From an uncultured Candidatus Saccharibacteria bacterium (GTDB taxonomy: Bacteria > Patescibacteriota > Doudnabacteria > UBA920): 64,000 nucleotides of DNA. The number at the start of each line of letters is the position of its first letter. Within the stretch, counting starts at the first letter, position 1. The notes beneath the pieces are model-generated. The model was not told the DNA's origin, made no database searches, and worked only from the letters and a program-made list of their open reading frames with translations. The stretch lies in contig CAZACP010000002.1 of assembly GCA_964483665.1 (NCBI GenBank), forward strand, positions 33,171 through 97,170. The letters are read 5' to 3'. The position numbers were made by a program, and so were the translations under genes. This document shows positions 5,868-32,657 of the stretch, piece after piece.

Positions 5868-5869
5868 TT

Positions 5870-11096: not shown

Positions 11097-11891
11097 ATGA
11101 AAGTAATAATACTCTGCGGCGGGGAAGGAACCCGTATGAAGGAAGAAACCGAGTTTAAGCCCAAACCTTTGGTGGAAGTGGGCGGTAAGCCCATTTTGTG
11201 GCATATTATGAAAATTTACGCCCATTATGGTTTTAATGAGTTTATTTTGGCTTTGGGCTATAAAGGCAATAGTATAAAAGAATATTTTATGAACTGGAGG
11301 ACTTTTGTCAATGATTTTACTTTAGATACCAGCGAACACTCGTTAAGTTTTCATAACAAAAATCATGAAAATTTTAAAATAACTTTTGTGGATACAGGAC
11401 AAAAAAGTTTGACCGGTGAACGTCTGAGGAGGCTTGAAAAATATATTCCCGATCAGGAATTTATGCTAACTTATGGCGATGGGGTTGCAGATATTGATCT
11501 TGTTAAGCTTTTGGATTTCCATAAACGGCAAAATACCATTGGAACTATTACTGGTGTTAGACCTTTGACGAAGCTTGGAATAGTCCATCAAGACAAACAG
11601 ACAAAAAAAGTAATAGGTTTTAGTCAAAATTTAGTCGGGGATTTCGTTGACAAAGAGAATTACCATGATTTTTTAATTAACGGGGGTTTTATGGTTTTCA
11701 AAAAAGATGTTTTTAAGGATTTAAAACCAAATAGCATGATTGAAGAGTTATTCATTCCTCTGGCTAAACGGGGTCAATTGTCTTTATTTGATCATCAAGG
11801 AAAGTGGAAAGCCATGGACACCTATAAGGAAGTTGAGGAGATGAACGAGTATTGGGAAAAAAATCCTTTTTGGAAAATTTGGGAAAAATAA
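11097..11891 (+). CDS. rfbF: Glucose-1-phosphate cytidylyltransferase
   Basis: MKVIILCGGEGTRMKEETEFKPKPLVEVGGKPILWHIMKIY is an RfbF/DdhA hallmark. Confidence 0.85.
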   Translation: MKVIILCGGEGTRMKEETEFKPKPLVEVGGKPILWHIMKIYAHYGFNEFILALGYKGNSIKEYFMNWRTFVNDFTLDTSEHSLSFHNKNHENFKITFVDTGQKSLTGERLRRLEKYIPDQEFMLTYGDGVADIDLVKLLDFHKRQNTIGTITGVRPLTKLGIVHQDKQTKKVIGFSQNLVGDFVDKENYHDFLINGGFMVFKKDVFKDLKPNSMIEELFIPLAKRGQLSLFDHQGKWKAMDTYKEVEEMNEYWEKNPFWKIWEK

Positions 11892-11893
11892 TT

Positions 11894-12859
11894 ATGGAAA
11901 TAGCATTACAAAATAAGGCTTGCTTGGTAACCGGCGGCACTGGACTTGTAGGTTCCCATGTGGTTGAGAGGCTTTTAGGTTTAAACGCCCAGGTTTTTGT
12001 TGTTGATTTGCAGGTATTATCCAAAAGCTATTTTGATTTAAAAAAATTTTCAGACAAATGCCCGGTATTCATTCAGGATGTAAGGGATGCTGTCAAAATT
12101 AAAGAAATTGTAGATCAAAACAGGATTGAATATATATTTCATTTGGCGGCCCAACCTATTGTAGGAGAGGCATTTTTGCACCCCATGCTGACTCTTGATA
12201 CCAATATTATGGGCACGGTTTCAGTTTTGGAGGCCGCTAAGGAAAATAAAAATATTAAGGCTGTGGTTGTGGCTTCCTCAGATAAAGCATACGGAAAACA
12301 TTCATATAATGTTACGGAAGACCAGCCTTTAAGCGGAGATCATCCATATGATGTTTCAAAGTCAGCGGCTGATTTAATTAGCATGGCTTATTTTCATACT
12401 TATAATCTACCGGTGACGGTTAGCCGATTCGGCAATATTTTTGGGCCGGGTGATTTAAATTTTAGCCGGATTGTTCCCGGGGTTATGGACAGTATTATAA
12501 ATAATAAAAATTTGGAGATACGTAGCGATGGTACTTTTGTACGGGATTATGTTTATGTAAAAGATGTGGCTGATGGTTATGTGGTTTTAGCCGAGCAGAT
12601 TGGCAAAACAGCCGGCCAGGCTTTTAATTTTTCCAGCGGTCATAATTTGTCTGTCCTAAAAATAATTGAAGACATCGAGAAGGTTATAGGAAAAAAGTTA
12701 AAATATAGAGTTGTGAATAGCCAGCAAAATGAAATACCCAGACAAAGTTTGAACTATGAGAAAGTCAGAAAAACACTGGACTGGAAGCCTAAATTCACTT
12801 TTGAACAAGGTATTAAAGAAACTTTTGAGTGGTATAAAAGTTTTTTTAAGCAGGCTTAA
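11894..12859 (+). CDS. rfbG: NAD-dependent NDP-sugar dehydratase (likely CDP-glucose 4,6-dehydratase)
   Basis: The Rossmann motif VTGGTGLVGSHV and the catalytic YDVSK are present. It sits immediately downstream of rfbF. Confidence 0.55.
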   Translation: MEIALQNKACLVTGGTGLVGSHVVERLLGLNAQVFVVDLQVLSKSYFDLKKFSDKCPVFIQDVRDAVKIKEIVDQNRIEYIFHLAAQPIVGEAFLHPMLTLDTNIMGTVSVLEAAKENKNIKAVVVASSDKAYGKHSYNVTEDQPLSGDHPYDVSKSAADLISMAYFHTYNLPVTVSRFGNIFGPGDLNFSRIVPGVMDSIINNKNLEIRSDGTFVRDYVYVKDVADGYVVLAEQIGKTAGQAFNFSSGHNLSVLKIIEDIEKVIGKKLKYRVVNSQQNEIPRQSLNYEKVRKTLDWKPKFTFEQGIKETFEWYKSFFKQA

Positions 12860-12907
12860 AGAAACTTTTATATTAAAAACTGAATTAGAATATTAATAAA
12901 ATATTTT

Positions 12908-14086
12908 ATGAAATATCGTCTAACTTCCGCTGCGAACAATTTGGAGGGCCAGCCTATGTTTAAAGTTCTTGCCAAGGTTAAGGATTTAGAGAGACTTGGA
13001 GAGGATATCGTTCATTTTGAAATAGGTGATCCCGATTTTAACACCCCTGAGAATATTACAAATGCGGCTATCGATTCCCTTAAGCGAGGAGAAACGCATT
13101 ACCAAAGTTCTTACGGAATGACTGAATTTAGAGAATTAGTCAGGGATATAACTTTAAAATCAAGAGGTTTTAAGCCTGATTTAGACCAAGTTTTAATTAC
13201 ACCATCAGCAAATATAATTATTTATTATGCGGTGGCTTGTTTGGTGGAGCCGGGTGATGAGGTTATTGTGCCAGACCCGGGTTTTCCTACTTATAACGCG
13301 GTTTTAAAGTTTTGTGGAGTTAAGGCTGTAGGAATTCCTCTTTTAGAAAAAAATCATTTTCGAATGAGTCCTCAAGATGTTGAAAAAGCTATAACCGAAA
13401 AAACCCGAATGATTATTATGAATTCTCCACAGAATCCCACAGGCTCGGTTATGACTCCTGATGAAATAAATAAAATGGCTGAAATTGCTGAAAAGTACGA
13501 GATTTACCTTTATACTGATGAAATATATTCTCGTATGATTTTTGAGCCTTCTGACAGTTTTTGTTCCCCGGCAAAAAGGGATGGTTGTAAAAAGAGAACG
13601 ATTTTAGCAAATGGATTTTCTAAAGCTTTTGCAATGACAGGCTGGCGTTTGGGGGTATGCATTGCACCATCTGATGTGATTGAGAAAATGGCTTTACTTC
13701 TTCAGACTACTTCTTCTTGCACTTCGCCGTTTATTCAAAGAGCCGGTATGGAAGCAATTTCAGGTAGTCAAAAAAGTGTTGAAGCTATGGTAGCAGAATA
13801 CAAAGCCAGAAGGGATTTGCTAGTAGCAGGACTTAATAATATCCCTGGAATTACTTGTTTAACTCCTGGCGGAGCATTTTATGTTGTACCCAATATTACT
13901 AAAACCGGCATGACCTCAGAAGAATTTGCAAAATTTGCTTTGGAAAAGGCAAAAGTTGCACTTTTGCCTTTAACAAACTTTGGACCAAGCGGAGAGGGCT
14001 ACGTACGTTTGTGTTATGCAACTTCCAGAGAACGCATTCTGGAAGGGTTAAAAAGATTAAGCGCCGCACTTGAGGCGAGAAAATAA
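12908..14086 (+). CDS. Class I/II PLP-dependent aminotransferase (AspAT-like)
   Basis: The NSPQNPTGSVMT motif and the Lys region ANGFSKAFAMTGWRLGV are present. Confidence 0.7.
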   Translation: MKYRLTSAANNLEGQPMFKVLAKVKDLERLGEDIVHFEIGDPDFNTPENITNAAIDSLKRGETHYQSSYGMTEFRELVRDITLKSRGFKPDLDQVLITPSANIIIYYAVACLVEPGDEVIVPDPGFPTYNAVLKFCGVKAVGIPLLEKNHFRMSPQDVEKAITEKTRMIIMNSPQNPTGSVMTPDEINKMAEIAEKYEIYLYTDEIYSRMIFEPSDSFCSPAKRDGCKKRTILANGFSKAFAMTGWRLGVCIAPSDVIEKMALLLQTTSSCTSPFIQRAGMEAISGSQKSVEAMVAEYKARRDLLVAGLNNIPGITCLTPGGAFYVVPNITKTGMTSEEFAKFALEKAKVALLPLTNFGPSGEGYVRLCYATSRERILEGLKRLSAALEARK

Positions 14087-14092
14087 TATATT

Positions 14093-15889
14093 ATGCGAGT
14101 CGCTGATTATATTACTAAGTTTATTGAAAATTTAGGAGTTCAGGATATTTTTACACTTACTGGTGGTGGCGCGATGTTTTTAAATGATGCTGCAGCGCAA
14201 AATCAGAAAATTAGGAGTATTTTTAATCACCATGAACAATCCAGTGCAATGGCCGCTTTTGCTTATAGTAAATACACCGGGAATTGGGGAGTCGCTTATG
14301 TAACGACTGGTTGCGGAGGAACTAATGCCGTAACCGGGCTGCTTGATGCCTGGCAAGATAATATTCCTGTAATGATAGTTTCAGGCCAAGTTAAAAGAGC
14401 GGATACAATTTGGGCAATGCAGCAGCCACTTAGGCAGTATGGTGTTCAGGAAGCGGATATTATCCCTATAGTTCAGTCTTTGTGTAAATATGCAGTAATG
14501 GTTACTGAACCTGAGAAAATTCTTTATCATTTACAAAAGGCAGTCTATTTAGCAACTCATGGAAGGCCCGGGCCTGTTTGGCTTGACGTACCTTCGGATG
14601 TTCAAGGTGCAGTTGTTGATGAAAATAATTTGGTCAAATTTGATCCAAAAGATTTGCAAGTTGATTACAAAAACCAGTGCTCTCAAAATGATCTAGCAGG
14701 TTTAGAAAGATTATTGGGGGCGGCTAAACGGCCTGTTATTATTGCCGGACACGGTATCAGGCTCGCGCATGCTATCTCAACTTTTAAAACGTTTATTGAA
14801 ACTTATAATATTCCTTTTGTCGGAACTTATTTGGCGACGGATTTTGTTCCGGGAGACCACCCTTTATTTATTGGCCGTACCGGCCTTAAGGGAGATAGGG
14901 CAGGTAATTTTGCCATGCAGAACTCTGACCTTATTTTAAGTATTGGTAGTCGTTTGGGTGTTACGGTTATTGGCTATAACCCCAAAGAATTCGCTCGGGC
15001 CGCTAAAATTGTAGTTGTTGATATAGACCCAAATGAACATAAGAAAAAAACAATTCATATTGACCAGTTTATAAATGCTGACGCCAAATGGTTTTTGGAA
15101 AATTTCAAACCGCAGGGACTTGGCGATTTTAAAGAATGGAGAGAAAAGTGCAAAAATTGGAAGGATAATTATCCGGTTTGTCTGCCGGAATACAGGCAAA
15201 TCAAAAAAGGAATAAACTTATATCATTTTGTCGATGAGTTATGTAAGGCTTTGCCGGAAGATGGTGTAATTGTAGCAGACGCTGGTTCGGCGATTTATGC
15301 ACCAGCCCAAGGTTTTAAAGCCAAAACCAACCAGAGACTAATTCTTTCGGGTGCTCAAGCGGAAATGGGTTTTACTTTGCCTGGTTGTATTGGTGTTTGT
15401 GCTGCTAAAAAAGACGGGGAAGTGGTTGGTATAACCGGCGACGGTTCTTTTCAAACTAATTTACAAGAACTACAACTTTTAGTCGAGTATAAATTCCCAA
15501 TTAAGCTTTTTGTATGGAACAATGACGGCTATTTGTCGATTCGGGCTACTCAAACCAAAATTTTTGAGGGCCGTTTATATGGCACAGACAAAAGTAACGG
15601 AGTGTCTTTGCCTGACACCAAAAAAATTACAGAAGCCTATGGCTTGCCTTACGTAAAAATCGAAGGCAGTGAAAATTTAAATGAAAAAATTTCCGCTGTA
15701 CTTAATATGAAAGGACCTGTGGTATGTGAAGTTATGTGCATACGGGATCAGGAAATTGTACCAACAGTTTCTTCAAAAAAGTTACCCGACGGTAGAATGG
15801 TTTCTAAACCTTTGGAAGATTTATACCCGTTCTTAGATAGGGAAGTCTTTAAAAATGAAATGATAGTTGAGCCTTTGTCGGAAGAATAA
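14093..15889 (+). CDS. Thiamine-diphosphate-dependent enzyme, acetolactate-synthase-large-subunit-like (YerE-like candidate)
   Basis: The N-terminal Pyr domain TGGGAMFLNDAAAQ and the C-terminal TPP motif GITGDGSFQTNLQEL...NNDGY are present. At 598 aa it has the full three-domain ALS architecture. Confidence 0.7.
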   Translation: MRVADYITKFIENLGVQDIFTLTGGGAMFLNDAAAQNQKIRSIFNHHEQSSAMAAFAYSKYTGNWGVAYVTTGCGGTNAVTGLLDAWQDNIPVMIVSGQVKRADTIWAMQQPLRQYGVQEADIIPIVQSLCKYAVMVTEPEKILYHLQKAVYLATHGRPGPVWLDVPSDVQGAVVDENNLVKFDPKDLQVDYKNQCSQNDLAGLERLLGAAKRPVIIAGHGIRLAHAISTFKTFIETYNIPFVGTYLATDFVPGDHPLFIGRTGLKGDRAGNFAMQNSDLILSIGSRLGVTVIGYNPKEFARAAKIVVVDIDPNEHKKKTIHIDQFINADAKWFLENFKPQGLGDFKEWREKCKNWKDNYPVCLPEYRQIKKGINLYHFVDELCKALPEDGVIVADAGSAIYAPAQGFKAKTNQRLILSGAQAEMGFTLPGCIGVCAAKKDGEVVGITGDGSFQTNLQELQLLVEYKFPIKLFVWNNDGYLSIRATQTKIFEGRLYGTDKSNGVSLPDTKKITEAYGLPYVKIEGSENLNEKISAVLNMKGPVVCEVMCIRDQEIVPTVSSKKLPDGRMVSKPLEDLYPFLDREVFKNEMIVEPLSEE

Positions 15890-15894
15890 TTTTT

Positions 15895-16791
15895 ATGAGC
15901 GCCCAAAAAAGCATTTTGTTAACCGGAGGTAGCGGTTTTATTGGTAAGCATATTGTTGAGCAGCTTTTTAGTATTTACAATATATTGGCCCCAAAACATT
16001 CCGAGCTTGATATTTTAAACGCTGGCGAAGTTAGACAGTATATAAAAGAACATTCCGTAAAATCAGTCATCCATGCTGCCAATATTGGCGGCACCAGAAA
16101 AAATCAAGACACGCCCGAAGTTTACGAAAAAAATTTACAAATGTTTAAAAATTTATCCGATCTAGAAAATGAGTTGGATAAGATTATTTTTTTTGGTAGC
16201 GGGGCGGAGTACGATAAATCAAAACCAATTACGCGCGTAAAAGAGTCGGACTTTGGGAAAAATATTCCTAAAGACCAATATGGCTTAAGCAAGTTTGAGT
16301 GTTCTAAAATTATTTCCACTATGCGCAATTGCATTAATTTGCGCTGTTTTGGAGTGTATGGAATTTATGAAGACTACGATCTAAGATTTATTTCTTATGC
16401 TATTTTGCGGGCCTTGCTTAATTTACCTATTATAATAAAACAAGATGTTTTGTTTGAATATGTATACGCAAAAGACTTGTGCCTGGTAGTTGAATATTTT
16501 TTAAAACATCACCCGAAAGAAAAATTTTATAATATTGGCACCAATCAGCCAATTTTGCTTAGTGAATTAGCAGAAATAGTAAAGAGTGTAAGCAATAGCC
16601 AGTCGCAAATTTTAGTTTTAAGTTCTGGTTTAGGTAAAGAATACACTTGTAATTCAGAAAAGCTGTTAGTCGAATTAAAGGACTTTAAGTTTACGCCCCT
16701 TAAAGTTGCTATAAAGGAAATGTTTGATTGGTACAAAGCTAACCTTGGTAGTCTAGATTTGAAAAATATTAAAGCAGAATATCCTCTTTAA
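15895..16791 (+). CDS. NAD(P)-dependent NDP-sugar reductase/epimerase (SDR)
   Basis: The motif ILLTGGSGFIGKHI is present. Confidence 0.6.
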   Translation: MSAQKSILLTGGSGFIGKHIVEQLFSIYNILAPKHSELDILNAGEVRQYIKEHSVKSVIHAANIGGTRKNQDTPEVYEKNLQMFKNLSDLENELDKIIFFGSGAEYDKSKPITRVKESDFGKNIPKDQYGLSKFECSKIISTMRNCINLRCFGVYGIYEDYDLRFISYAILRALLNLPIIIKQDVLFEYVYAKDLCLVVEYFLKHHPKEKFYNIGTNQPILLSELAEIVKSVSNSQSQILVLSSGLGKEYTCNSEKLLVELKDFKFTPLKVAIKEMFDWYKANLGSLDLKNIKAEYPL

Positions 16792-16794
16792 GTA

Positions 16795-17682
16795 ATGAAC
16801 AGTATTAAACCCACAATTTTACTTACCGGAGCAACGGGTTTTTTAGGTAGCCATTTGCTTAAAAAATTGGTGAGCTTAGATATATATAATTTAGTTGTAC
16901 TTAAGCGTTCTATTTCTAACACCTTTAGAATTTCGGAAGCCATAGAAAAAGTTCAAACTTACGACTTAGACAAAATTAGCCTTGAAACAGTTTTTGCGCA
17001 TCATAAAGTTGATTACATACTTCATTGCGCAACTGACTACGGCCGTAAGAACAGCCCTGTTCAGCTAATTATAGAAGCTAATTTACTTTTACCGCTTAAA
17101 CTCTTAGAATTAGGCAAACAAAACGGCATAAAGAGTTTTATAAACACCGATACGATTTTAGACAAAAGAATCAACGCATATTCTTTGTCTAAAAAACAAT
17201 TTAAAGAGTGGCTTAATTTGTCCAAAAATTCTTTGGCTTGTGTAAATATTGCACTCGAACATTTTTTTGGGCCCGGCGATGACAAAACCAAATTTTCTAG
17301 TTATATTATAGACTCCTTACTACGAGGAGTGGAATCTATTGACTTAACTAAAGGGGAACAGCAGAGAGATTTTATTTATATAGACGACTGCGTTGACGCT
17401 TTTTTAACTATTATTGATTATGTAAAAAATCTTACCAGTGGTTTTTATGAATTCGAAATTGGCACTAACCAACCAGTGACTATAAAAGATTTCGTGCTTT
17501 TAATAAAAGAACTTTCCGGCAACACAGCCACGGTTTTAAATTTTGGAGCTCTGCCCTATAGGGAAAATGAAGTTATGGAATGCCGTACCAATACCGAACC
17601 TATTTGTAAGCTTGGCTGGGCGCCAAAATTTTCTTTAAAGTTAGGACTATTAAAAACTATTGAAAGAGAGAAGGAGTTATGA
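16795..17682 (+). CDS. NAD(P)-dependent NDP-sugar reductase (SDR; CDP-abequose/paratose-synthase-like)
   Basis: The motif ILLTGATGFLGSHLLKKL is present and the protein is about 295 aa. Confidence 0.6.
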   Translation: MNSIKPTILLTGATGFLGSHLLKKLVSLDIYNLVVLKRSISNTFRISEAIEKVQTYDLDKISLETVFAHHKVDYILHCATDYGRKNSPVQLIIEANLLLPLKLLELGKQNGIKSFINTDTILDKRINAYSLSKKQFKEWLNLSKNSLACVNIALEHFFGPGDDKTKFSSYIIDSLLRGVESIDLTKGEQQRDFIYIDDCVDAFLTIIDYVKNLTSGFYEFEIGTNQPVTIKDFVLLIKELSGNTATVLNFGALPYRENEVMECRTNTEPICKLGWAPKFSLKLGLLKTIEREKEL

Positions 17683-18707
17683 AATATTTAATTACTGGAG
17701 GAGCTGGATTTTTAGGATCAAATTTAGCCGCCGAAGTTTTAAAAAGAAAAGAGAAATTAGTCATTTATGACAATCTCTCCCGCATGGGAAGTGAGAAGAA
17801 TTTAGAATGGCTTAAGACCCAAGGTGAGTTTGAATTTTTAAAAGAAACTACCGCAGATTTTAAATCTCTGACTGAAATTTTAAAAAATTTTCAGCCTGAC
17901 GTAATTTTCCATTTGGCCGGCCAGGTGGCAATGACAACATCTATTTTTGACCCACGTAAAGATTTTGAAACCAACGCGTTAGGCAGCTTTAATGTTTTAG
18001 ATGCAGTTAGGCTATACGCACCTAATGCTGCGGTTATTTATTCTTCCACCAACAAAGTCTACGGGGATTTAGAGTATTTGAATTATAAAGAAACCAATAC
18101 CCGTTACGAGCTGACCGATTTCCCGAAAGGACTGCCGGAGTCAGTTAGTTTGGACTTTGCTTCGCCTTACGGCTGCTCTAAAGGCAGCGCGGATCAGTAT
18201 ATGCACGATTTTTACAAAACTTTTAAAGTCAAAACCGTAGTATTTAGGCACTCTTCTATGTACGGGGGCCGCCAGTTTTCTACCTTTGACCAGGGCTGGC
18301 TGGGCTGGTTTTGTGAGCAGGCGGTGTTGTCTAAATTAGGAAAGCTTTCAAAACCCTTCACTATTTCCGGCAATGGTAAACAAGTTCGCGATGTTTTGCA
18401 TTCACAAGATATGGTAGCTTTATATTTTAAAGCAGCAGAAAATATAAGCAGTATTGCCGGAGAAGTTTTTAACATAGGCGGGGGACAAGAAAATAGCTTG
18501 TCTTTAATTGAACTTTTTTCTATTTTAGAAAAACAGCTAGAAGTTAAATTAAGTTTTACCCAATTGCCAACCAGGCAGAGTGACCAAAAAGTTTTTGTGG
18601 CTGACATTGCCAAAGCTAAACGGCTAATTGGCTGGGAGCCTAAAGTTTTGGCAAAAGAGGGTATACGGCAAATGTTGGAATGGGTTAAGAGCATAAACAA
18701 TGAATGA
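17679..18707 (+). CDS. NAD-dependent NDP-sugar epimerase (CDP-paratose/tyvelose 2-epimerase-like)
   Basis: The motifs LITGGAGFLGSNLA and SSTNKVYGDL are present. Confidence 0.6.
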   Translation: MKYLITGGAGFLGSNLAAEVLKRKEKLVIYDNLSRMGSEKNLEWLKTQGEFEFLKETTADFKSLTEILKNFQPDVIFHLAGQVAMTTSIFDPRKDFETNALGSFNVLDAVRLYAPNAAVIYSSTNKVYGDLEYLNYKETNTRYELTDFPKGLPESVSLDFASPYGCSKGSADQYMHDFYKTFKVKTVVFRHSSMYGGRQFSTFDQGWLGWFCEQAVLSKLGKLSKPFTISGNGKQVRDVLHSQDMVALYFKAAENISSIAGEVFNIGGGQENSLSLIELFSILEKQLEVKLSFTQLPTRQSDQKVFVADIAKAKRLIGWEPKVLAKEGIRQMLEWVKSINNE

Positions 18708-21700: not shown

Positions 21701-22527
21701 CAGAAGTTACTCATTTACAAAGTGGTATGTGGCCAGACGTAGCTCTGCTTTTGCGCTATCAAAAGTTGTTTGTTTCAGGCTACCTAAATATTCCTATGGT
21801 TCCACCCCCACATACTTGGACTGTAGTTTTACTTGTTTATTTAATTGGCCTTATAAGTGTAGCTAAAGACTTAGTAAAAAAAGAAGTTACTTACCAAAGC
21901 AAAATTATTTTTTTTAGTGGTATTTTAGGCCTTGGTTTGTTTGCTTACTACGAAGGGCAGTCGAGCGACATAACTTTGTTCCGTACTTCTTACCCTGCGC
22001 TTATAATTGTTATTATGTTTGTTGACAAGCTTTGGACAGAGCTTAAAGCCAAGGGACAATTAATTTTTGGTAAATTTGTAATTCTTAGTTTTTTGTTATT
22101 TGTCCTTTTTTCCGTACCGTTTAGTTTAATAGCTAACTTAGGTAGTTACTACGTTTTTGCTAAAGACGCTGTAAAGAATATTCAGCTTAAAGACTCTAGC
22201 TATTTAAGGAATGTAAAGTTTATAAAACAAAATACTCAACCAAACGAACGAGTTTTTATATTGGCCAGTCCGCAGCAAGGGGTTTACTACACAGAAAGCA
22301 AAACTTTGCCGGTAGTAACTGTGGCTTCGGTCGCGGATATAGTTTTTCCCAAAGACTTGGATGTCCAATATAATTTTTTACAGACCAATAAGGCCACAAA
22401 AGTTTTTGCATTAATGCCTTTGGAAAACTATGATAAATTTGACCCGCGGCTTAAAAAAATTATTATGGAGCAATACAAACAAGTTTTAAAGTCCGAAGAT
22501 GGAATGGTATACTTTTTACCCAAATAA
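18700..22527 (+). CDS. 1275-aa fusion: GT2 polyprenyl-phosphate sugar synthase (GtrB/DPM1-like) + GtrA-like 4-TM domain + large polytopic GT-C-like domain with a C-terminal soluble domain
   Basis: Residues 1-230: VVIPAYLEAENL...DADGSHDP. Around residues 245-370: FVRFCIVGTIGVITNLVVFYL (GtrA family). Residues 380-1275 carry more than 20 hydrophobic segments. Confidence 0.7.
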   Translation: MNEVEISVVIPAYLEAENLRLLLPRLKNILAKLSSSSEIVVADTLEPKDDTPVVCKEQGVVYLNRQGGNTYGDAVRTGIKNAKGKYIVFMDADGSHDPEFIEKLYAERTAHDVVIASRYVQGGNTDNTFISKLMSLTVNKLFALGLGLPYKDVSNSFKLYNAEQLKNLQLYCNNFDIIEEILYKLKKNKKNLLVKEIPFYFKKRIYGETKRELVKFIFSYARTMFRLRFGNSGNKMTRIPELYSKLKQSSFVRFCIVGTIGVITNLVVFYLTRHYLALSVSLAAVAAFLVAVTQNYYFNHKWTFSFDEQSKPNLFSFIKYAGVNLFSLAVNLIVTNLVLFFAGKGFSESLAQAFGILTGFVLTYVGSSVFIFAKKDNLSLLFKERFVMANRVEYLLKLKNNLFYFFKNEYKVFISFAILFLGLLYLGQVVSVIGNKTILQPVTIEAYNQADQNPESLERFMQLARAGNYTFLKPNLESKQPWTVENVFFKKVLVGMSEKDLKTLKVISVKIGNSDFAYTQDEFLDSWNSVDLNLLKGNLSGKEDVDFKLFESPEALSLPKSHIPVYKSFFGSIINWGGDSTLFLKPLKNALGAWVLVLFLTIFIRVVYLIVRNSSFLESHEQEELRKYIAFSLSIYTSVFCLLLLNIFLKLFYKPNTAGILSQAKLDYVNYFFKSIRPKPVERLQFVLSTVLSPFLVYFSYLWFEKKNFFSKALYKVLFFFNLFLFASVIYLGLAVSGFFFVRDSFFAGFYFRYVYALILFPLCFVFLYYKNPPKSVLLFLKLLGLLAVVTVFSLGIVNLFDGYLPLDLDPVIYPQIQVLSGKNLLAPVTSFYGLYAFFLQPIFKLIGFSVLKFSLVMSSLMLLSFWFLKKMLRRAVENTTIYLLGFLAIVFYTVLATRTMPEYYFQYWPIRFIFPALGFYLITWYLKNKSQLAYFFGILLSAIGVLWNLDVGLVLFIALMATLILDAWCGKQNIKDFFKKTFWHIVYGALGLILVVGFFAEVTHLQSGMWPDVALLLRYQKLFVSGYLNIPMVPPPHTWTVVLLVYLIGLISVAKDLVKKEVTYQSKIIFFSGILGLGLFAYYEGQSSDITLFRTSYPALIIVIMFVDKLWTELKAKGQLIFGKFVILSFLLFVLFSVPFSLIANLGSYYVFAKDAVKNIQLKDSSYLRNVKFIKQNTQPNERVFILASPQQGVYYTESKTLPVVTVASVADIVFPKDLDVQYNFLQTNKATKVFALMPLENYDKFDPRLKKIIMEQYKQVLKSEDGMVYFLPK

Positions 22528-22554
22528 CCAAAATTATTAATTGTAATAAATAGT

Positions 22555-22707
22555 ATGCACTATATTTGTACCGGCGGATGTAAAGGAGTTTCCGAAACTC
22601 CCGGCACTTGCCAAGCTAAAGACTGCCCTTTGTATGGTCACGAGCTTCAGCCTTGCGACTGCACAGACGGAAAACATTACGGTAAGCAAGACGAAAAAGC
22701 CGAATAA
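22555..22707 (+). CDS. Small Cys-rich protein (50 aa, 6 Cys), hypothetical
   Basis: Translation is MHYICTGGCKGVSETPGTCQAKDCPLYGHELQPCDCTDGKHYGKQDEKAE. It lies between the giant GT gene and its own terminator, and was not in the ORF track because it is shorter than 60 aa. Confidence 0.35.
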   Translation: MHYICTGGCKGVSETPGTCQAKDCPLYGHELQPCDCTDGKHYGKQDEKAE

Positions 22708-22720
22708 GCAAAACTCACTA

Positions 22721-22750
22721 AAAGCAAGGCCAAAAACCCTTGCTTTTTTG
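22721..22750 (+). terminator. Rho-independent terminator
   Basis: Hairpin gcaagg/ccttgc followed by a T-run. Confidence 0.55.
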
Positions 22751-22855
22751 TATGTTTTATGATATATTATAACGTCGCCCCAATTGCCATAAAGGGCGAA
22801 TTTGATGCGGCACTCGCATCATAGGTTTGGCAAAAAAGACCCCAGGAGGTGGGGA

Positions 22856-23608
22856 ATGGATTGGAAAGATAGACTGAAAAAGGAAAAATGGGTGGAGGGA
22901 AGGCTTATTTATTTTCACCCTTCCTCTTACCGCCACCGAGTGGTGGTGGTATGCTATGAACTTGGTCGTCAGAAAGCCGAGTTCTCAAATGGCACTCTCA
23001 ACTACGGTGCGTATGTTGAACTGTGTCGCCCGGATGGTACCTGGATCCGGGAAGGAGTCAACGTCGTGCCGGTTTTACCGGACGGCCGTATCGTTATGGT
23101 TGTTGAACAACGCCCCGCTCAATTTGCTTATGGAGACTGTCCTTCTCAGATTGAGACAGAAGGGCACAAGGCAATGGATTTGGAGAAATTTGGCCCCTAC
23201 AGCTCCTTGGAGTTTCCGGGAGGTGGTGTGGACGCGGATCAAAATTTCCATGCCGCTTTTCTTGCCGAACTAATCGGAGAAACAGGACTCGAAGATCAGA
23301 CCGCAACACTGATCACGCGGGAACCGTATTTCTATCCGGCGGGTGCGGACGTCGCTCTTCGTTCTAAGCAAGCTGTAATTTACCTGACTGGGATGAAGTT
23401 TGAAGGTTATGTGAACGATGACGGCGGTCTGCATGTCTTGGCATTGAGTCCTTATGACATTCTCCGTAATATCCGCACCGGTGCTTTGGCTTCGTCGCAG
23501 ACCGTGCTCTTGCCGTGGTATTTCTACCAGGAGTTACAAAATTCAGATACATCGGCTCTCGAAAAGACCGGGTACATCTCTCGTAAGGAGGTGAAGATCA
23601 AAAAGTAG
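22856..23608 (+). CDS. NUDIX hydrolase, carried on a GC-rich islet
   Basis: A strong RBS AGGAGGTGGGGA precedes the ATG. A Nudix-box-like region EFPGGGVDADQNFHAAFLAELIGETGL is present. GC content jumps well above the surroundings. Confidence 0.6.
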   Translation: MDWKDRLKKEKWVEGRLIYFHPSSYRHRVVVVCYELGRQKAEFSNGTLNYGAYVELCRPDGTWIREGVNVVPVLPDGRIVMVVEQRPAQFAYGDCPSQIETEGHKAMDLEKFGPYSSLEFPGGGVDADQNFHAAFLAELIGETGLEDQTATLITREPYFYPAGADVALRSKQAVIYLTGMKFEGYVNDDGGLHVLALSPYDILRNIRTGALASSQTVLLPWYFYQELQNSDTSALEKTGYISRKEVKIKK

Positions 23609-23641
23609 GAAAGTATGAGGAGGAAAGGAGACAAGTAGCAT

Positions 23642-23708
23642 AAAGCGCTGGAAGTACGTTAGTTGTGCCCGAGTCGACGGCGGCACAAAGGACAGACTTT
23701 CAGCGCTT
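23642..23708 (+). terminator. Long GC-rich hairpin, probable terminator of the NUDIX gene
   Basis: Arms aagcgctggaagt / actttcagcgctt, with an inner gtgcc/ggcac stem around a gtcgac palindrome. Confidence 0.45.
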
Positions 23709-23859
23709 CTTTCAATGGTGGAAATAGCTCTTTCTTTTTTGTTTATTTTCTGGTAATCTAAACCACAGATACGCAAATTATCATAAATCACACAGATTTA
23801 AAAAATCAAACAAATATCTGCGTTATCTGCTTTTATCTGTGTATCTGTGGACTAAAAAT

Positions 23860-25140
23860 ATGAGTTCAAAATACCCCTCGCATCACGATATAAAAACCGG
23901 TTACATAAACTATTGCCAAATTTGTAATTCCCAAAAACTCCATACTATTTTAGACTTAGGCCACCAGCCTTTATGCGACACTTTGCTTACCCAAAAATCT
24001 TTAAACGAACCGGAAAAAACTTATCCTTTAAGGATGATCTGGTGTGAAAATTGCACAGGCGTGCAAATTGACTATTGTGTAGACGGCAGCGAAGTTTATC
24101 ACCCGGACTATCCATACAAAAGCGGGGTGACTAAAGAATTGGTAGAGTACCAAGTTAAAATTGGCCAGGGGCTTATAAAAAAGTTTAATTTAAAAGAAGG
24201 TGACTTGGTTATAGATGTAGGTTCCAACGACGGCACGCTTTTAAGCGGCTTTAAAGGCACAGGCATAAAAACTGTTGGCATAGAGCCTACCAACATAGCA
24301 AAACTTGCAAACCTTGCAGGCATAGAAACTGTTCAGGCATTTTTTAATATAGAAACTTCAGAAAAAGTTAAAGAAAAATACGGACAAGCCAACGTAATAG
24401 TTACAACCAATACTTTTGCTCATATGCAAGGATTGGGTGAATTTATAATGGGCGCTTACAATTTGCTTAAAGATGGCGGGGTGTTTGTTTCTGAAACCCA
24501 TTATTTACTAGACGCGCTCCAAGGCGGACAGTTCGATACTATTTACCACGAGCATTTAAGAACTTATTCTTTGCATAGCTTAATAGCGTTGTTCGACCAA
24601 TATGACTTTACCGTGGTAGATGTAGAAAGAGGGGAACGTTATGGTGGCAATATTCGTGTTTATGCAGCGAAAGGTAAGGGTAAAGAAGTTAGCCAAGCGG
24701 TTACTGACTTGCTTAAAAAAGAAAAAGAAGCGGGTTTGGACAAAATCGAAACTTACACTAAATTTGCCGACCGAGTAAAGAAAGCGCGACTTGAATTTGT
24801 AGACTTTTTAATAAAAGCAAAAAAAGAAGGTAAGAGCATTGTTGGGAACTCTTGTCCGGGCAGGTCGAGCACTTTACTTAACTACTACGGTATAGATACA
24901 GAACTTTTGCCTTACTTAGCCGAGCAGCCACAGTCCCTAAAACTTGGAATGTATTTACCGGGTAAGCATATACCAGTGGTAAACAACCAACGCTTAATAG
25001 ACGAACAACCAAATTATGTAGTTTTGCTGGCTTGGCACTATGCCAAACCTATAATGCAGCAGCTAAAAGCGCGAGGGCTTAAATCGGACTTTATAATTCC
25101 TTTACCTGAATTTACAATTGTAAAAAATTCCGAAGTATAA
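23860..25140 (+). CDS. NDP-hexose C-methyltransferase (TylCIII/Methyltransf_13-14 family)
   Basis: The N-terminal zinc-ribbon CQICNSQ...LGHQPLCDTL...YPLRMIWCENCTGVQI is present, followed by a class-I SAM MTase region. The track starts at a GTG (23839); the first ATG is 23860. Confidence 0.65.
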   Translation: MSSKYPSHHDIKTGYINYCQICNSQKLHTILDLGHQPLCDTLLTQKSLNEPEKTYPLRMIWCENCTGVQIDYCVDGSEVYHPDYPYKSGVTKELVEYQVKIGQGLIKKFNLKEGDLVIDVGSNDGTLLSGFKGTGIKTVGIEPTNIAKLANLAGIETVQAFFNIETSEKVKEKYGQANVIVTTNTFAHMQGLGEFIMGAYNLLKDGGVFVSETHYLLDALQGGQFDTIYHEHLRTYSLHSLIALFDQYDFTVVDVERGERYGGNIRVYAAKGKGKEVSQAVTDLLKKEKEAGLDKIETYTKFADRVKKARLEFVDFLIKAKKEGKSIVGNSCPGRSSTLLNYYGIDTELLPYLAEQPQSLKLGMYLPGKHIPVVNNQRLIDEQPNYVVLLAWHYAKPIMQQLKARGLKSDFIIPLPEFTIVKNSEV

Positions 25141-25144
25141 AATT

Positions 25145-26143
25145 ATGCTTAAAGTGGGGATTATAGGAACCGGGTTTGGTATGTATGGGCATTTGCCGGC
25201 TTTCGCAACTACAAATAATTGCCAAGTAGTTAGCATATGTGGAGAAAAAAGTGAACGTCTTTCAAAGTTTTGTAAGAAGTATAAAGTTGAAAAAGTTTAT
25301 AGTGACTGGAAAGAGATGCTAAAAGCTGAAAAGCTAGACGCTGTAAGTATAGCCGTGGTGCCCGACGCACAATATGAAATTGCAAAGTTTGCTATAAAAA
25401 AAGGTATAAATGTTTTTGCTGAAAAACCTTTGACCGCAAATCTTAAACAAGCAGAAGAACTTTACAGGCTTTCACAAAAAGCTAAGATTACGACCGCGGT
25501 AGATTTTATTTTTCCTCAAGTACCAGAATTTAAAAAAGTTAAAGAATTACTTGTAAAAAAAGAAATAGGGGAACTAGAATATATAAAAGCCGAATGGGAT
25601 TTTTTAAGCCACGATTTGGCTCGTAAGCTAAAATCGTGGAAAACAGACTCAAAAAAAGGCGGAGGTGCGCTAGCTTACTATTTCTCACATGTTTTGTACT
25701 ACTTAACTGACTTTTTAGGAGAAATAACTTTTAAAAAAGCTCAGCTAATTCATTCCCAAAAAAGTTTAAGCGGCGGTGAAGCGGGTGTGGATGTATTTTT
25801 TAAGGCTAAAAAGGCTACAGGTATAGCGCATCTAAACTGTTCGGCAGAAGGCTTAAATAGGCACAGTATAATTTTTACCGGGGGAAAGGGGGGTATTGTT
25901 TTAGAAAATAAACAAGATGTAGTACAAGGTTTTGAAATTACAGTCTACAGGAATTCAAAAGTAAAAAAAGTTAAAGCCGGCAAAAAATTTATTGCAAACG
26001 AAGACCAGCGGGTAGCTATAGTTAAAGAAAATGTTTCCAAGTTTGTGGAAGGCTGTTTAAAACATAAGCCAATTAAGCCTTCTTTCAAAGAAGGCTTAGA
26101 AGTTCAAAAGTTAATTAGTCATTTACGAAAAATATCAATATGA
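25145..26143 (+). CDS. Gfo/Idh/MocA-family NAD(P)-dependent oxidoreductase
   Basis: The motif MLKVGIIGTGFGMYGHLPAF is present. Confidence 0.65.
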   Translation: MLKVGIIGTGFGMYGHLPAFATTNNCQVVSICGEKSERLSKFCKKYKVEKVYSDWKEMLKAEKLDAVSIAVVPDAQYEIAKFAIKKGINVFAEKPLTANLKQAEELYRLSQKAKITTAVDFIFPQVPEFKKVKELLVKKEIGELEYIKAEWDFLSHDLARKLKSWKTDSKKGGGALAYYFSHVLYYLTDFLGEITFKKAQLIHSQKSLSGGEAGVDVFFKAKKATGIAHLNCSAEGLNRHSIIFTGGKGGIVLENKQDVVQGFEITVYRNSKVKKVKAGKKFIANEDQRVAIVKENVSKFVEGCLKHKPIKPSFKEGLEVQKLISHLRKISI

Positions 26144-27357
26144 AAAAAGAAAAATATTTAAGAGTTCCCTATGGTTTTTCCGTACACGGTAAAGAAGAAA
26201 TTGCCGCGGTGGTAAAAGTTTTAGAAGGCAATACCGCAATGGGCGACTACACCAAAGAGTTTGAGGAAAAAGTCGCTAAAATGTTTGGTAAAAAATATGG
26301 CATAATGGTCAACTCCGGCAGCAGCGCCAACTTGCTGGCTTTTGAACTTTTAAATTTGCCTAAAGGTAGTGAAGTTATTACACCGATTCTTACTTTTTCC
26401 ACCACTGTGGCGCCAATTGTTCAGAAAGGCTTGGTACCGGTGTTTTGTGATGTAAAAAAACATACTTTGCAAATTAATATTGACCAGTTGGAAAAGGCTA
26501 TTACCAAAAAAACCCGCGCGCTTATGATTCCGTCTTTAATGGGCAATATACCAGATTTGCCAAGACTACAAAAAATTGCCAGAAAACATAAAGTATTTTT
26601 AATAGAAGATTCTTGTGATACTTTGGGAGGCCAGATAAACGGTCAGCCCACCGGCAAATTTAGCGATATTTCCATAACCAGTTTTTATGGTAGTCATGTT
26701 ATTAACGGGGCTGGGGGTGGTGGAATGATTATGGTTAACAATCCAAAGTGGGCTGAGCGTTTAATGATTTTGCGCGGGTGGGGCAGGCGTTCAAGTTTGT
26801 TTGGGGAAAAACAAAATAGTGAACAATTGAAAAATCGGTTTCGCAGCAAGCTTTCAGGTGTGCCTTACGATGAGAAATTTGTTTTTAGCGAAATTGGCTA
26901 CAATTTTTTGCCTTTGGAAATTTCTTCCGCGTTTGCACTGGAGCAGTTAAAAAAATTTCCAAGTTTTAAAGCTGTTAGAAAAAATAACTGGGAAAATTTG
27001 AAAAAGTATTTCTTTTTAAATAATAAATATTTTAATTACGGCGAGACAACCCCCAAAACAGAAAGTATTTGGCTTGCCTTCCCTATATTTATAAAGCCCG
27101 AAGCGCCTTTTAGTCGCTTTGAGCTTGTTAAATTTTTAGAAGACCATAATATTCAAACCAGACCTGTATTTACCGGTAATATACTCAAACAGCCGGGTTT
27201 TAAAAACTTTAAATATAAAACTCCTTTTACTGACTATCCGAATGCTGAATATATAATGCGAAATGCGTTCGTTGTCGGTTCTCATCACGGTCTGGATCAA
27301 AAGCAGATTAACCACATAAAAAACAGCATTAGTGATTTCATTGCTAAGTATGAATAA
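26140..27357 (+). CDS. DegT/DnrJ/EryC1 fold-type-I enzyme of the PMP-dependent sugar 3-dehydrase type (E1/DdhC or ColD-like)
   Basis: The family motif normally reads SFHxxK. Here it reads ITSFYGSHVIN, with His where the Schiff-base Lys sits, as in E1 and ColD dehydrases. Confidence 0.65.
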   Translation: MKKEKYLRVPYGFSVHGKEEIAAVVKVLEGNTAMGDYTKEFEEKVAKMFGKKYGIMVNSGSSANLLAFELLNLPKGSEVITPILTFSTTVAPIVQKGLVPVFCDVKKHTLQINIDQLEKAITKKTRALMIPSLMGNIPDLPRLQKIARKHKVFLIEDSCDTLGGQINGQPTGKFSDISITSFYGSHVINGAGGGGMIMVNNPKWAERLMILRGWGRRSSLFGEKQNSEQLKNRFRSKLSGVPYDEKFVFSEIGYNFLPLEISSAFALEQLKKFPSFKAVRKNNWENLKKYFFLNNKYFNYGETTPKTESIWLAFPIFIKPEAPFSRFELVKFLEDHNIQTRPVFTGNILKQPGFKNFKYKTPFTDYPNAEYIMRNAFVVGSHHGLDQKQINHIKNSISDFIAKYE

Positions 27358-31916: not shown

Positions 31917-32657
31917 ATGCCTAAAATTTCCGTTAATATTTTAACCAAAAACCGGAAAGATCAATTGCAAAAAGCCATTGAGTCTGTTTTGAAGCAATCT
32001 TTTAAGGACTATGAAATAATTGTGGTAAATGACGGATCAACTGATAAAACAGAGGAAATAATATTGAGGTATAAGGATATTAAGGTATTGAGGCACGAAA
32101 CATCGGTTGGAATAACCCAAAGCAGGCAGGAAGCATTAGAAGCATCGCAAGGAGAATATATTGCAATTTTGGACGACGATGACGAATGGATTGATACCGA
32201 TAAGTTAAAAAAGCAGGTAGAGTTTTTAGACAAACACAATGACTATGTTTTGGTGGGAGGAGGAGTTAGAATATCAAATATCAATCCGCCAGCTGGCGGA
32301 CAAATATCAAAATTCAGACCTAAGACAGACAGCCAGATTCGGAACTGGATGCTTTTAAAAAATCCATTTTTTACTTCAACTGTAATGTTTAGAAAATCCG
32401 CTGCTTTTAAAGCTGGAGGTTTTAAAAAAGACCAAATAGATTTAGGAGAAGACTATGACCTTTGGCTCAGAATGGGACTCTTAGGCAAACTGCATAATTT
32501 TCAGGAAGTCTTTACCTTGTACCGCGAATCCAGCTATAATAAAGCTAAATTTAAGCTATTTTTAAAAAAGCAGCTTAAATTAATAACTGCTTTTAAAAGT
32601 AATTACCCCTTTTTTTGGTTAAGTAATATAATTTTAAGGCTTAGGTTAATGTTATGA
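31917..32657 (+). CDS. Glycosyltransferase family 2
   Basis: The motif ISVNILTKNRKDQL...IIVVNDGSTD is present. Confidence 0.65.
   Translation: MPKISVNILTKNRKDQLQKAIESVLKQSFKDYEIIVVNDGSTDKTEEIILRYKDIKVLRHETSVGITQSRQEALEASQGEYIAILDDDDEWIDTDKLKKQVEFLDKHNDYVLVGGGVRISNINPPAGGQISKFRPKTDSQIRNWMLLKNPFFTSTVMFRKSAAFKAGGFKKDQIDLGEDYDLWLRMGLLGKLHNFQEVFTLYRESSYNKAKFKLFLKKQLKLITAFKSNYPFFWLSNIILRLRLML

Follow-up and report, generated by a model that had tools for sequence, protein, structure and literature searches.

A surface-glycan locus of a probable Patescibacterium with a predicted YerE-type branched-sugar pathway and an E1-like dehydratase that lacks three iron-sulfur cysteines

We examined a stretch of 64,000 nucleotides (the window) from an uncultured Candidatus Saccharibacteria bacterium (contig CAZACP010000002.1), in which the region analyzed, positions 11097-27357, is a run of co-directional plus-strand genes within a larger glycan locus. 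We propose that one shared precursor, cytidine diphosphate (CDP)-4-keto-6-deoxyglucose, probably feeds three modules of this region that make separate sugars. The locus appears to encode a YerE-type branched-sugar pathway that combines an aminotransferase-type donor module with a relative of the 3-dehydratase E1 lacking the iron-sulfur cluster site (“cluster-free” in what follows). The most interesting element, in our view, is the large group to which this relative belongs, cluster-free 3-dehydratases with histidine in place of the Schiff-base lysine (His-type) that are linked to RfbF-type genes. The whole glycan locus spans roughly 4.7-34 kb of the window, ends at a priming glycosylphosphotransferase (32654-33958) and is followed by type IV pilus genes; 11097-27357 is part of this one surface-glycan locus. 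Close homologues carry the names of Patescibacteria, and the host is probably a member of that group. Comparisons with Pfam, NCBIfam and PDB recovered on the plus strand, and at the same positions, all the genes that an initial annotation of this DNA had listed (Table 1).

In the proposed scheme, RfbF and a 4,6-dehydratase would provide CDP-4-keto-6-deoxy-D-glucose for all three modules. In the first, the E1-like enzyme (26140-27357) would take off the 3-hydroxyl group by way of a pyridoxamine phosphate (PMP) ketimine and may then, like ColD, release its product by hydrolysis and recharge PMP from L-glutamate. The product, CDP-4-keto-3,6-dideoxyglucose, is predicted to be the ketone acceptor of a YerE/JanthE-like thiamine diphosphate (ThDP)-dependent enzyme that would decarboxylate a 2-oxo acid and add the acyl group at C-4. 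A class-I aminotransferase (AT1) would make this 2-oxo-acid donor from an amino acid, and a short-chain dehydrogenase/reductase (SDR; 15895-16791) would reduce the branch carbonyl as YerF does. In the second module, another SDR (16795-17682) and a 2-epimerase may turn the 3,6-dideoxy-4-keto intermediate, or a close analogue, into CDP-paratose and CDP-tyvelose. In the third, a 3-C-methyltransferase and an oxidoreductase of the Gfo/Idh/MocA family (Gfo) would convert CDP-4-keto-6-deoxyglucose to a 6-deoxy-3-C-methylhexose. We built this scheme on gene identities, histidine and cysteine status, synteny and co-occurrence; from these we predict every chemical step, the nucleotide that carries the sugars, the donor and the separateness of the three products.

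The E1-like protein matches E1 (3BCX) with 233 bits at about 35% identity and ColD with 204 bits, and its score against the RfbH model NF011936 (346.9 bits) is under the cut-off of 423. Its Schiff-base position is occupied by histidine (motif SFYGSHVINGAGGGG), which aligns with His220 of E1 (3BCX) and His188 of ColD (2GMS), and with the lysine engineered into the H220K mutant of Yersinia E1 (3BB8). These alignments bear out the histidine that the initial annotation had noted and show that the protein, having no lysine there, is not an ordinary aminotransferase. The [2Fe-2S] motif of E1 is C-X57-C-X-C-X7-C (C193, C251, C253 and C261). The window protein has two cysteines in total; an equivalent of C193 is present and those of C251, C253 and C261 are absent, so that the cluster motif, whose presence the annotation had left as a question, is missing three of its four cysteines. 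Histidine is kept and the same three cysteines are absent in all 120 of the closest homologues (at least 67% identity), which shows that the trait is not the result of decay.

The cluster-free state extends well into the family. In a neighbor-joining tree (62 sequences, 100 bootstraps), the cluster-free clade and the cluster-bearing E1 clade were each monophyletic with a support of 100; the two were sisters with a support of 83, and a grouping of the cluster-free clade with ColD reached 6. Among the best 150 cluster representatives (50% identity), every one has the histidine, 89 lack all three cysteines and 53 have all three. The 89 cluster-free representatives are closest to the window protein in 51 cases, to Yersinia E1 in 24 and to ColD in 14, and given the 24 nearest E1, several losses, or gains, of the iron-sulfur site are possible in the history of this family. 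A Pfam scan covered ten cluster-free representatives longer than 600 amino acids: eight are fused to a 4,6-dehydratase-like SDR, 3,5-epimerase, RmlD-like or other SDR domain, one has an intein (P0281) and one gives no second domain match, and in none of the ten was a flavin, ferredoxin or iron-sulfur reductase domain found. In four other Patescibacterial loci, a cluster-free E1-like gene adjoins a 4,6-dehydratase gene and an RfbF-type gene whose product is 40-45% identical to the window RfbF; three of the four continue with a 3,5-epimerase and a reductase and so hold an ascarylose-like set without the E3 reductase. The 120 homologues, the 89 of 150 representatives and the fusions together rule out that the trait is an oddity of Patescibacteria or the mark of a decaying gene. 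Our search, within the literature available to us, found no report of a cluster-free 3-dehydratase acting on CDP-sugars, nor of Patescibacterial dideoxyhexoses.

To place these genes in context, we compared 80 loci fetched via relatives of the window ThDP enzyme and counted neighbors within 10 kb; a scan with one genome per species gave at least 579 relatives of this enzyme in many phyla, and compared loci are labeled within the series L001-L108. Cultivable bacteria are among the carriers: Methylophilaceae LSUCC0401 (L017; complete genome, with RfbF, RfbG, E1, AT1 and the ThDP enzyme), Campylobacter concisus Lasto28.99 (L046) and Paenibacillus sp. CGMCC 1.60098 (L033). No E3-like gene (ferredoxin plus ferredoxin-NADP reductase) was found in the window, where open reading frames (ORFs) of at least 150 amino acids were scanned with Pfam or NCBIfam. 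A search for the plant-type ferredoxin motif gave nothing in the window and only spurious antisense ORFs in the 80 loci, none of which contains an E3-like ORF. The E1-like genes of these loci nearly all encode the histidine together with the full cysteine motif; only those of the window and of L008, also Patescibacterial, are without the cysteines. Since E3 is missing from all 80 loci, even though the iron-sulfur cysteines persist in nearly every E1 gene there, its absence is not diagnostic; a missing E3 is the rule for this cluster type. The initial annotation had not found the canonical E1/E3 pair next to RfbF and RfbG, and had read the absence of E3 as a sign of ColD-like, reductase-independent 3-deoxygenation. 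As to the pair, E3 is indeed absent from the window, but an E1-like gene is present, set apart by a 9.3 kb insertion. As to the mechanism, it is plausible and gains from the loss of Cys251, Cys253 and Cys261, but not from the absence of E3. With no cluster to take up electrons and no E3 partner, hydrolytic release with recharging of PMP from L-glutamate is most likely, and by analogy with ColD such a mechanism seems the most economical for the E1-like protein. Three characterized 3-dehydratases appear in a 2022 review of nucleotide-sugar dehydratases: E1 (with cluster and E3), SpnQ (with cluster, served by general reductases) and ColD (without cluster, using glutamate) (PMC8987622).

Synteny accounts for the distance between the E1-like gene and the start of the pathway. 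Three relatives, L091, L092 and L093, are syntenic with the window and occupy the same place in their genomes, with the priming transferase and a pilB-like ATPase gene on the downstream side. The order in L092 is RfbF, dehydratase, AT1, ThDP enzyme, SDR, a pyruvate-kinase-barrel protein, E1-like protein and a family 2 glycosyltransferase (GT2); in L093 it is an RfbF-dehydratase fusion, AT1, ThDP enzyme, SDR, a NUDIX protein, E1-like protein and GT2; and in L091 it is RfbF, dehydratase, DmpF, DmpG, HpcH aldolase, ThDP enzyme, SDR, E1-like protein and GT2. The E1-like gene thus comes within two genes after the ThDP enzyme and its reductase in all three, and in L008 some 0.75 kb separate it from the dehydratase gene. 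This compact frame is also that of the window, except that an insertion of 9.3 kb (16795-26143) parts the reductase from the E1-like gene. Within the insertion lie the second SDR (SDR295), the 2-epimerase, a GT2-GtrA fusion, a weak NUDIX-like ORF, the C-methyltransferase and Gfo. The statement of the initial annotation that no E1 stands next to RfbF and RfbG therefore describes an effect of this insertion. The slot of the insertion is filled in L092 (8719-9720) by the pyruvate-kinase-barrel protein (333 amino acids), perhaps for pyruvate supply, and in L093 by the NUDIX gene.

The ThDP enzyme has the three domains of its superfamily, the catalytic glutamate (HEQ, within HHEQ) and the GDG...NN motif (GDGSFQ...WNND). 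Its best solved relative is JanthE (8RPH, 411 bits), with which it aligns end to end, the C-terminal PLEDL tail included; PpYerE follows with 243 bits and plant acetohydroxyacid synthase (AHAS) with about 228, so that the margin of PpYerE over AHAS is small. The best NCBIfam model, the acetolactate synthase equivalog TIGR00118, gives 354 bits, under its cut-off of 538. We did not find ilvN, ilvC or ilvD in the window, and ilv genes are not among the recurrent neighbors in the 80 loci. Those neighbors are RfbF in 43 loci, an RfbG-like 4,6-dehydratase in 53, an E1-like gene in 50 and a reductase of the SDR298 type (the first SDR of the window) in 26. The link of this enzyme with nucleotide-sugar genes is not due to chance. 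Judged by its sequence, the enzyme is YerE-like and not an acetolactate synthase; here the initial annotation, which had matched it to YerE and had weighed a placement among acetolactate synthases with ilv context, agrees with the JanthE score, the missing ilv context and the synteny with rfbF, rfbG and E1 genes. JanthE belongs to the ketone-accepting YerE-like enzymes (PMC12188165, PMC12247030) and takes ketones and C3-C6 2-oxo acids (PMC12188165); its physiological substrates are not established, so it gives no assignment of the donor. In another Patescibacterial locus, L089 (5323-9857), the neighbors of a cluster-free E1-like gene are RfbF, a dehydratase, an SDR and a transketolase split into an N-terminal part and a pyrimidine-binding plus C-terminal part; here, two-carbon branching of the transketolase type may take the place of a YerE-type enzyme.

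The donor is most likely supplied by AT1. This protein matches the Pyrococcus aromatic and aspartate aminotransferases 1DJU and 1GD9 with about 282 bits, and it keeps the Schiff-base lysine and an arginine (GYVRLCYAT) that we take, from what is known of the aspartate aminotransferase (AspAT) family, to be the residue binding the alpha-carboxylate; free amino or 2-oxo acids are therefore its likely substrates. AT1 adjoins the ThDP gene in 8 of the 80 loci, directly upstream in seven and downstream in L018, and it is directly upstream in L092 and L093 as well. Other loci have other accessory sets at hand: NeuB-like synthases, in some cases with a gene directly upstream of the ThDP gene that looks by sequence alone like a HAD-family phosphatase, or HpcH/HpaI aldolases with DHQS-like and FabG-like genes. 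Such modules (NeuB, HpcH, DHQS, FabG) occur in none of the 8 AT1 loci and in 44 of the 72 others, a count with weak statistics because the 8 AT1 loci are related to one another. In the Patescibacterial locus L091 (4507-8943), an acetaldehyde dehydrogenase, a DmpG-like aldolase and an HpcH/HpaI aldolase lie directly upstream of the ThDP enzyme. An SDR298- or SDR312-type reductase accompanies AT1 and the ThDP enzyme in the AT1 loci examined (window, L008, L011, L017, L092 and L093), and this favors donor supply over amination of the branch. SDR298, an extended SDR, is itself the proposed YerF-like reductase: its orthologues (34-47% identity) adjoin the ThDP gene in 26 of the 80 loci and stand directly downstream of it in L091-L093.

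Entry into the pathway from a CDP-hexose, as the initial annotation had claimed, is supported. RfbF scores 268 bits against TIGR02623 (cut-off 300); its best solved relative is the Salmonella glucose-1-phosphate cytidylyltransferase (1TZF, 216 bits), with other nucleotidyltransferases far behind, and orthologues with 66-76% identity hold the same position in L091-L093. The dehydratase starts with an ATG at 11894, immediately after the RfbF stop codon. It is closer to the dTDP-glucose dehydratase 6BI4 (164 bits) than to the CDP-glucose dehydratase 1WVG (129 bits) and is thus not a canonical RfbG orthologue; CDP-glucose is its presumed substrate. In L093 (3727-5580), RfbF and the 4,6-dehydratase are fused in one protein of 617 amino acids.

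The genes at 16795-18707 look like a third and conventional branch. SDR295 tentatively resembles CDP-paratose synthase, and its homologues (57-62% identity) carry the automated JGI name CDP-paratose synthetase. The 2-epimerase aligns with the solved enzymes over residues 1-339 and is called CDP-paratose 2-epimerase by JGI; an SDR295 gene is paired with an orthologue of it in L035. The initial annotation had described three SDRs, two reductases and a 2-epimerase-like one. All three are present and the epimerase is well supported, while two of them (16795-18707) look rather like a pair of paratose synthase and tyvelose epimerase.

The C-methyltransferase is composed of a zinc-binding N-domain, a SAM methyltransferase domain and a C-terminal sugar-binding domain, and it matches MtmC (4RV9) with 252 bits, 5T64 with 211 and 3NDI with 189. 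Gfo gives only weak matches to solved structures; we propose it as the ketoreductase of the methylated 4-keto sugar. Six loci (L094, L095, L097, L099, L103 and L108) encode a close orthologue, at least 63% identical to the window C-methyltransferase, and extend far enough downstream of it for comparison. A Gfo orthologue (40-50% identity) follows directly 3' in all six, RfbF and dehydratase are found in L094 and L097, L103 has a dehydratase-like SDR only, and a ThDP or E1-like gene occurs in none within up to 8 kb. We detected no orthologue of the window C-methyltransferase or Gfo in L092 and L008, and in L093 only an unrelated gene of the Gfo family; in L091, the C-methyltransferase is set apart in a sub-block that it shares with a cupin isomerase gene and two SDR genes. 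The constant pairing with Gfo and the missing ThDP and E1-like genes indicate that the C-methyltransferase and Gfo form a separate, self-contained module. They speak against the doubly modified, branched 3,6-dideoxyhexose that the initial annotation had envisaged.

Other readings of single modules have to be weighed against this scheme. The ThDP enzyme and AT1 could be ordinary amino-acid metabolism genes that lie in the glycan locus by chance, as their database names (acetolactate synthase large subunit; aspartate/methionine/tyrosine aminotransferase) and the top rank of TIGR00118 would have it. The gene context already contradicts this, since no ilvN, ilvC or ilvD is in the window and the linkage with nucleotide-sugar genes is kept across 80 genomes of many phyla; with the shortfall against TIGR00118 (354 against 538) and the lead of JanthE over AHAS (411 against about 228), we regard it as highly improbable. 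A more serious question is whether AT1 acts after the ThDP step and aminates the acyl-branch carbonyl, which would give a 1-aminoalkyl-branched sugar. Acetyl branches made by YerE-type enzymes are open to reductases, transaminases and oxygenases (PMC9306805), and AT1 is always immediately beside the ThDP gene. Yet AT1 is a typical aminotransferase of the AspAT/aromatic aminotransferase (ArAT) type with the alpha-carboxylate arginine, and a branched nucleotide sugar has no alpha-keto acid; moreover, the accompanying SDR298- or SDR312-type reductase already accounts for the branch carbonyl, and AT1 fills the slot of the aldolase donor modules (L091), with which it is mutually exclusive. Transaminases that act on sugars usually belong to the DegT type, which also counts against amination by AT1. 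We consider this route unlikely and prefer donor supply. For the E1-like enzyme, the alternative to ColD-like chemistry is a need for an external reductant (ferredoxin or flavodoxin, another oxidoreductase, or Gfo), or else a drift to 3,4-ketoisomerization or transamination. Its clade is sister to the reductase-dependent E1 and not to ColD, Gfo is translationally coupled to the E1-like gene, only 64 kb of genome are in view, and SpnQ runs on general cellular reductases (PMC8987622). However, a protein with two cysteines, and without C251, C253 and C261, offers no site for the one-electron relay of E1 and SpnQ, and histidine in place of lysine speaks against ordinary transamination (PMC8987622); none of the ten fusions scanned has an E3-type reductase, and Gfo is not a conserved neighbor of the cluster-free clade. 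These alternatives together hold a small share of the probability, clearly below that of ColD-like release. Gfo as a surrogate reductase in particular is unsupported, being absent from the other loci of the clade.

The initial annotation, finally, had the C-methyltransferase, Gfo, E1-like and ThDP enzymes act on one sugar, a 3,6-dideoxyhexose bearing a C-methyl group as well as a two-carbon branch. All the genes share one co-directional locus with a single RfbF/dehydratase pair, the end of Gfo and the start of the E1-like gene share 4 bp, these two look co-transcribed with the C-methyltransferase, and a distant C-methyltransferase-like gene (20-25% identity) stands beside the ThDP gene in L010, L038 and L077. 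Against this, the methyltransferase-Gfo pair occurs in six of six loci with RfbF and dehydratase in two and ThDP or E1-like genes in none, whereas L092, L093 and L008 have the ThDP/E1-like pathway without a detectable orthologue of either gene, and the L091 C-methyltransferase keeps to its own sub-block. MtmC, KijD1 and TcaB9 methylate C-3 of a 4-keto sugar that retains its C-3 substituent, which is a further count against it. We think a single doubly modified sugar improbable, to much the same degree as amination of the branch, and regard three separate products as more likely. A number of points nevertheless weigh against our scheme as well. A terminator-like hairpin (22720-22747; 10 bp stem plus T-run, a consensus match only) 3' of the GT2-GtrA gene suggests a division of the locus into two transcription units; after it, the C-methyltransferase, Gfo and the E1-like gene seem to share one transcript, and this apparent co-transcription, together with the overlap, may point to a functional trio. 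The tree that sets the cluster-free clade beside E1 is a neighbor-joining tree of 62 sequences with 83% support for the sister group. RfbF, the E1-like protein and the dehydratase all score under NCBIfam equivalog cut-offs, and since the dehydratase is nearer to dTDP-glucose dehydratases, CDP is supported mainly by RfbF and by the RfbF-dehydratase fusion. AT1 also accompanies iron-sulfur-containing E1 genes (L010-L012, L017 and L018) and so is not tied to iron-sulfur-free chemistry. The SDR295/epimerase pair of L035 comes after RfbF and dehydratase with no E1 in the 21.8 kb examined, and the pair may act on 6-deoxy rather than 3,6-dideoxy sugars. A reductase may be encoded elsewhere in the genome, beyond the window. 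To our knowledge, neither biochemistry nor a glycan structure has been described for this organism or its close relatives.

Further genes complete the locus (Table 1). The GT2-GtrA fusion (1275 amino acids) has about 18 hydrophobic segments, of which about 14 are membrane spans beyond the GT2/GtrA part, and the Pfam scan gave no match past residue 372. A GtrB-like GT2 was seen in 30 of the 80 related loci. The fusion probably transfers a special sugar via a polyprenyl-phosphate carrier and may unite synthesis of the polyprenyl-phosphate sugar, its flipping and its final transfer in one polypeptide. The weak NUDIX-like ORF, which has a weak NUDIX gene of 167 amino acids in the equivalent slot of L093, gave no match to the EvaA-type hexose 2,3-dehydratase family. 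A 2,3,6-trideoxy route (forosamine or rhodinose) composed of a NUDIX-fold 2,3-dehydratase, a Gfo-type 3-ketoreductase and a SpnQ-like 3-dehydrase was rejected on these grounds: the NUDIX match is sub-threshold and not of EvaA type, Gfo has no strong ketoreductase match, and the conserved partner of Gfo is the C-methyltransferase. Orthologues of the GT2 at 27332-28264 (42-45% identity) are directly 3' of the E1-like gene in L091 and L093. The next gene encodes 299 amino acids with no membrane span and has orthologues with 40-51% identity in L091-L093; its sole family match, to the archaeal glycosylation protein Agl16, is very weak. The priming transferase has orthologues with 55-63% identity at the same place in L091-L093, each followed by the pilB-like ATPase gene. 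At the start of the locus, window 1461-3451 holds a GT-D fold glycosyltransferase and a GT10 alpha-1,3-fucosyltransferase-like gene, and a GT10 gene also adjoins the E1-like gene in L089. Window 4680-8588, upstream of a Wzx-like flippase, encodes a 395-amino-acid protein without assigned function and two nucleotidyltransferase-domain proteins of unusual length (547 and 363 amino acids), a set conserved in the closest contigs (L001-L006).

Table 1. Genes and candidate genes of the locus with their positions in the window.
Feature	Position	Strand	Support
Glucose-1-phosphate cytidylyltransferase, RfbF type	11097..11891	+	TIGR02623, 1TZF
NDP-hexose 4,6-dehydratase SDR, short RmlB-like type	11894..12859	+	PF16363, PF01370
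Class-I (AspAT/ArAT type) aminotransferase AT1	12908..14086	+	PF00155, 232 bits
YerE/JanthE-like ThDP-dependent C-C branching enzyme	14093..15889	+	PF02776, PF00205, PF02775 (three ThDP enzyme domains)
Extended SDR (SDR298), proposed YerF-like reductase of the acyl-branch carbonyl	15895..16791	+	PF01370
SDR295, tentative CDP-paratose-synthase-like 4-ketoreductase	16795..17682	+	PF01370
CDP-tyvelose (CDP-paratose) 2-epimerase, SDR342	17679..18707	+	9RL0, 518 bits; 1ORR, 439 bits
Fusion of GtrB-like GT2, GtrA and a long multi-pass membrane region, 1275 aa	18700..22527	+	PF00535 and PF04138 in residues 1-372
Weak NUDIX-like ORF, gene status uncertain	22802..23608	+	PF00293, E = 7e-4, under cut-off
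NDP-hexose 3-C-methyltransferase (TylC3/MtmC/TcaB9 type)	23839..25140	+	PF08421, 73 bits; PF13489, 59 bits; PF08484, 155 bits
Gfo/Idh/MocA oxidoreductase, conserved partner of the C-methyltransferase	25145..26143	+	PF01408, PF22725, PF02894
PMP-dependent NDP-4-keto-6-deoxyhexose 3-dehydratase, E1-like, His for Lys, no [2Fe-2S] site	26140..27357	+	PF01041, 266 bits
GT2 glycosyltransferase	27332..28264	+	PF00535, 104 bits; ancestral downstream neighbor of the E1-like gene
Conserved protein without assigned function, part of the locus	28264..29163	+	no Pfam family
Polyprenyl-phosphate glycosylphosphotransferase (priming)	32654..33958	+	TIGR03025, 326 bits, over cut-off

The type of pathway is already known, YerE-like clusters have been catalogued before, and our results do not overturn current understanding. 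C-3 deoxygenation of CDP-hexoses is the textbook case of a radical mechanism with PMP, a [2Fe-2S] cluster and E3. Reconstitution of the E1/E3 pair is difficult: in the hands of one group it gave no activity, and CDP-tyvelose was not obtained enzymatically (PMC7851689). If our reading is true, a cluster-free enzyme that uses only glutamate would be a practical tool for CDP-3,6-dideoxyhexoses, and ColD-type chemistry would not be limited to GDP-sugars. An aminotransferase-linked YerE-type cluster would likewise widen the published “unifying scheme” of acyl-branched sugars from aldolase-made to amino-acid-derived donors. A bolder extension, which we offer as speculative and rather unlikely, is that the E1-like protein stands for an uncharacterized clade of cofactor-poor, E3-independent CDP-hexose 3-dehydratases and works here in a closed amino-group cycle with the adjacent AT1. 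The dehydratase would use glutamate to recharge PMP and release ammonium, and AT1 would regenerate glutamate while converting an amino acid to the 2-oxo-acid donor of the ThDP enzyme, so that each sugar would cost one amino acid, from which the carbon branch as well as the reducing equivalents of 3-deoxygenation would come. Such a cycle would place a new 4-C-acyl or 4-C-hydroxyalkyl 3,6-dideoxyhexose with an amino-acid-derived side chain on the Patescibacterial surface. Small-genome Patescibacteria appear to invest in elaborate surface sugars, and we know of no glycan structures from this group.

Among known systems, the yersiniose A pathway of Yersinia pseudotuberculosis (DdhA-D, YerE and YerF) shares with the pathway predicted for the window the CDP-glucose route, the 4-keto-3,6-dideoxy intermediate, ThDP-dependent acyl transfer to C-4 and a neighboring reductase that acts on the branch (PMC9306805, PMC12247030). 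The window differs in that its E1 equivalent is without the [2Fe-2S] cysteines, it holds no E3 (DdhD) gene, the dehydratase is RmlB-like, a class-I aminotransferase precedes the ThDP gene, and the ThDP enzyme is of the JanthE-type subgroup and only marginally nearer to PpYerE than to AHAS. The ThDP motif of JanthE itself (Janthinobacterium sp. HH01) is CDG and not the canonical GDG found in the window. The erwiniose cluster of Pectobacterium atrosepticum (ErwE, ErwF, ErwI and ErwJ) also has a donor-making module beside its ThDP enzyme, and L091 matches it with aldolase and acetaldehyde dehydrogenase genes in the slot of the window AT1 (PMC9306805). The window has an aminotransferase instead of an aldolase, and the donor would thus be an amino-acid-derived 2-oxo acid and not 4-hydroxy-2-oxopentanoate. 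SDR295 and its neighbor recall RfbS and RfbE, the CDP-paratose synthase and CDP-tyvelose 2-epimerase of Salmonella, as a short SDR followed by a very close homologue of the 2-epimerase, in the rfbS-rfbE order of the Salmonella cluster. Related epimerases also interconvert CDP-glucose and CDP-mannose, so the substrate in the window is not fixed by similarity to RfbE (PMC7851689). The C-methyltransferase shares its three-domain architecture with TylC3, MtmC, KijD1 and TcaB9 (matches of 185-252 bits), but stands in a CDP-sugar context with a conserved Gfo/Idh/MocA partner. The solved 3-C-methyltransferases belong to antibiotic deoxysugar pathways, which, as far as is known, are dTDP-linked and use SDR 4-ketoreductases.

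The E1-like protein stands between two characterized types. With E1 (AscC, DdhC or RfbH) it has in common the DegT fold, the histidine for the Schiff-base lysine, the CDP-sugar gene context and the position as a sister clade, but it is without three of the four cluster cysteines, does not reach the RfbH equivalog score, and has a glycine-rich SHVINGAGGGG where E1 has AHHITMGEGG. With ColD it shares the histidine, the absence of an iron-sulfur cluster and, within the 64 kb in view, the absence of a reductase partner. ColD belongs to a clade of its own and works with GDP-mannose (Gmd) genes, whereas the neighbors of the window clade are RfbF-type cytidylyltransferases; as the likely mechanistic model, however, ColD provides enamine hydrolysis with PMP regenerated from glutamate (PMC8987622).

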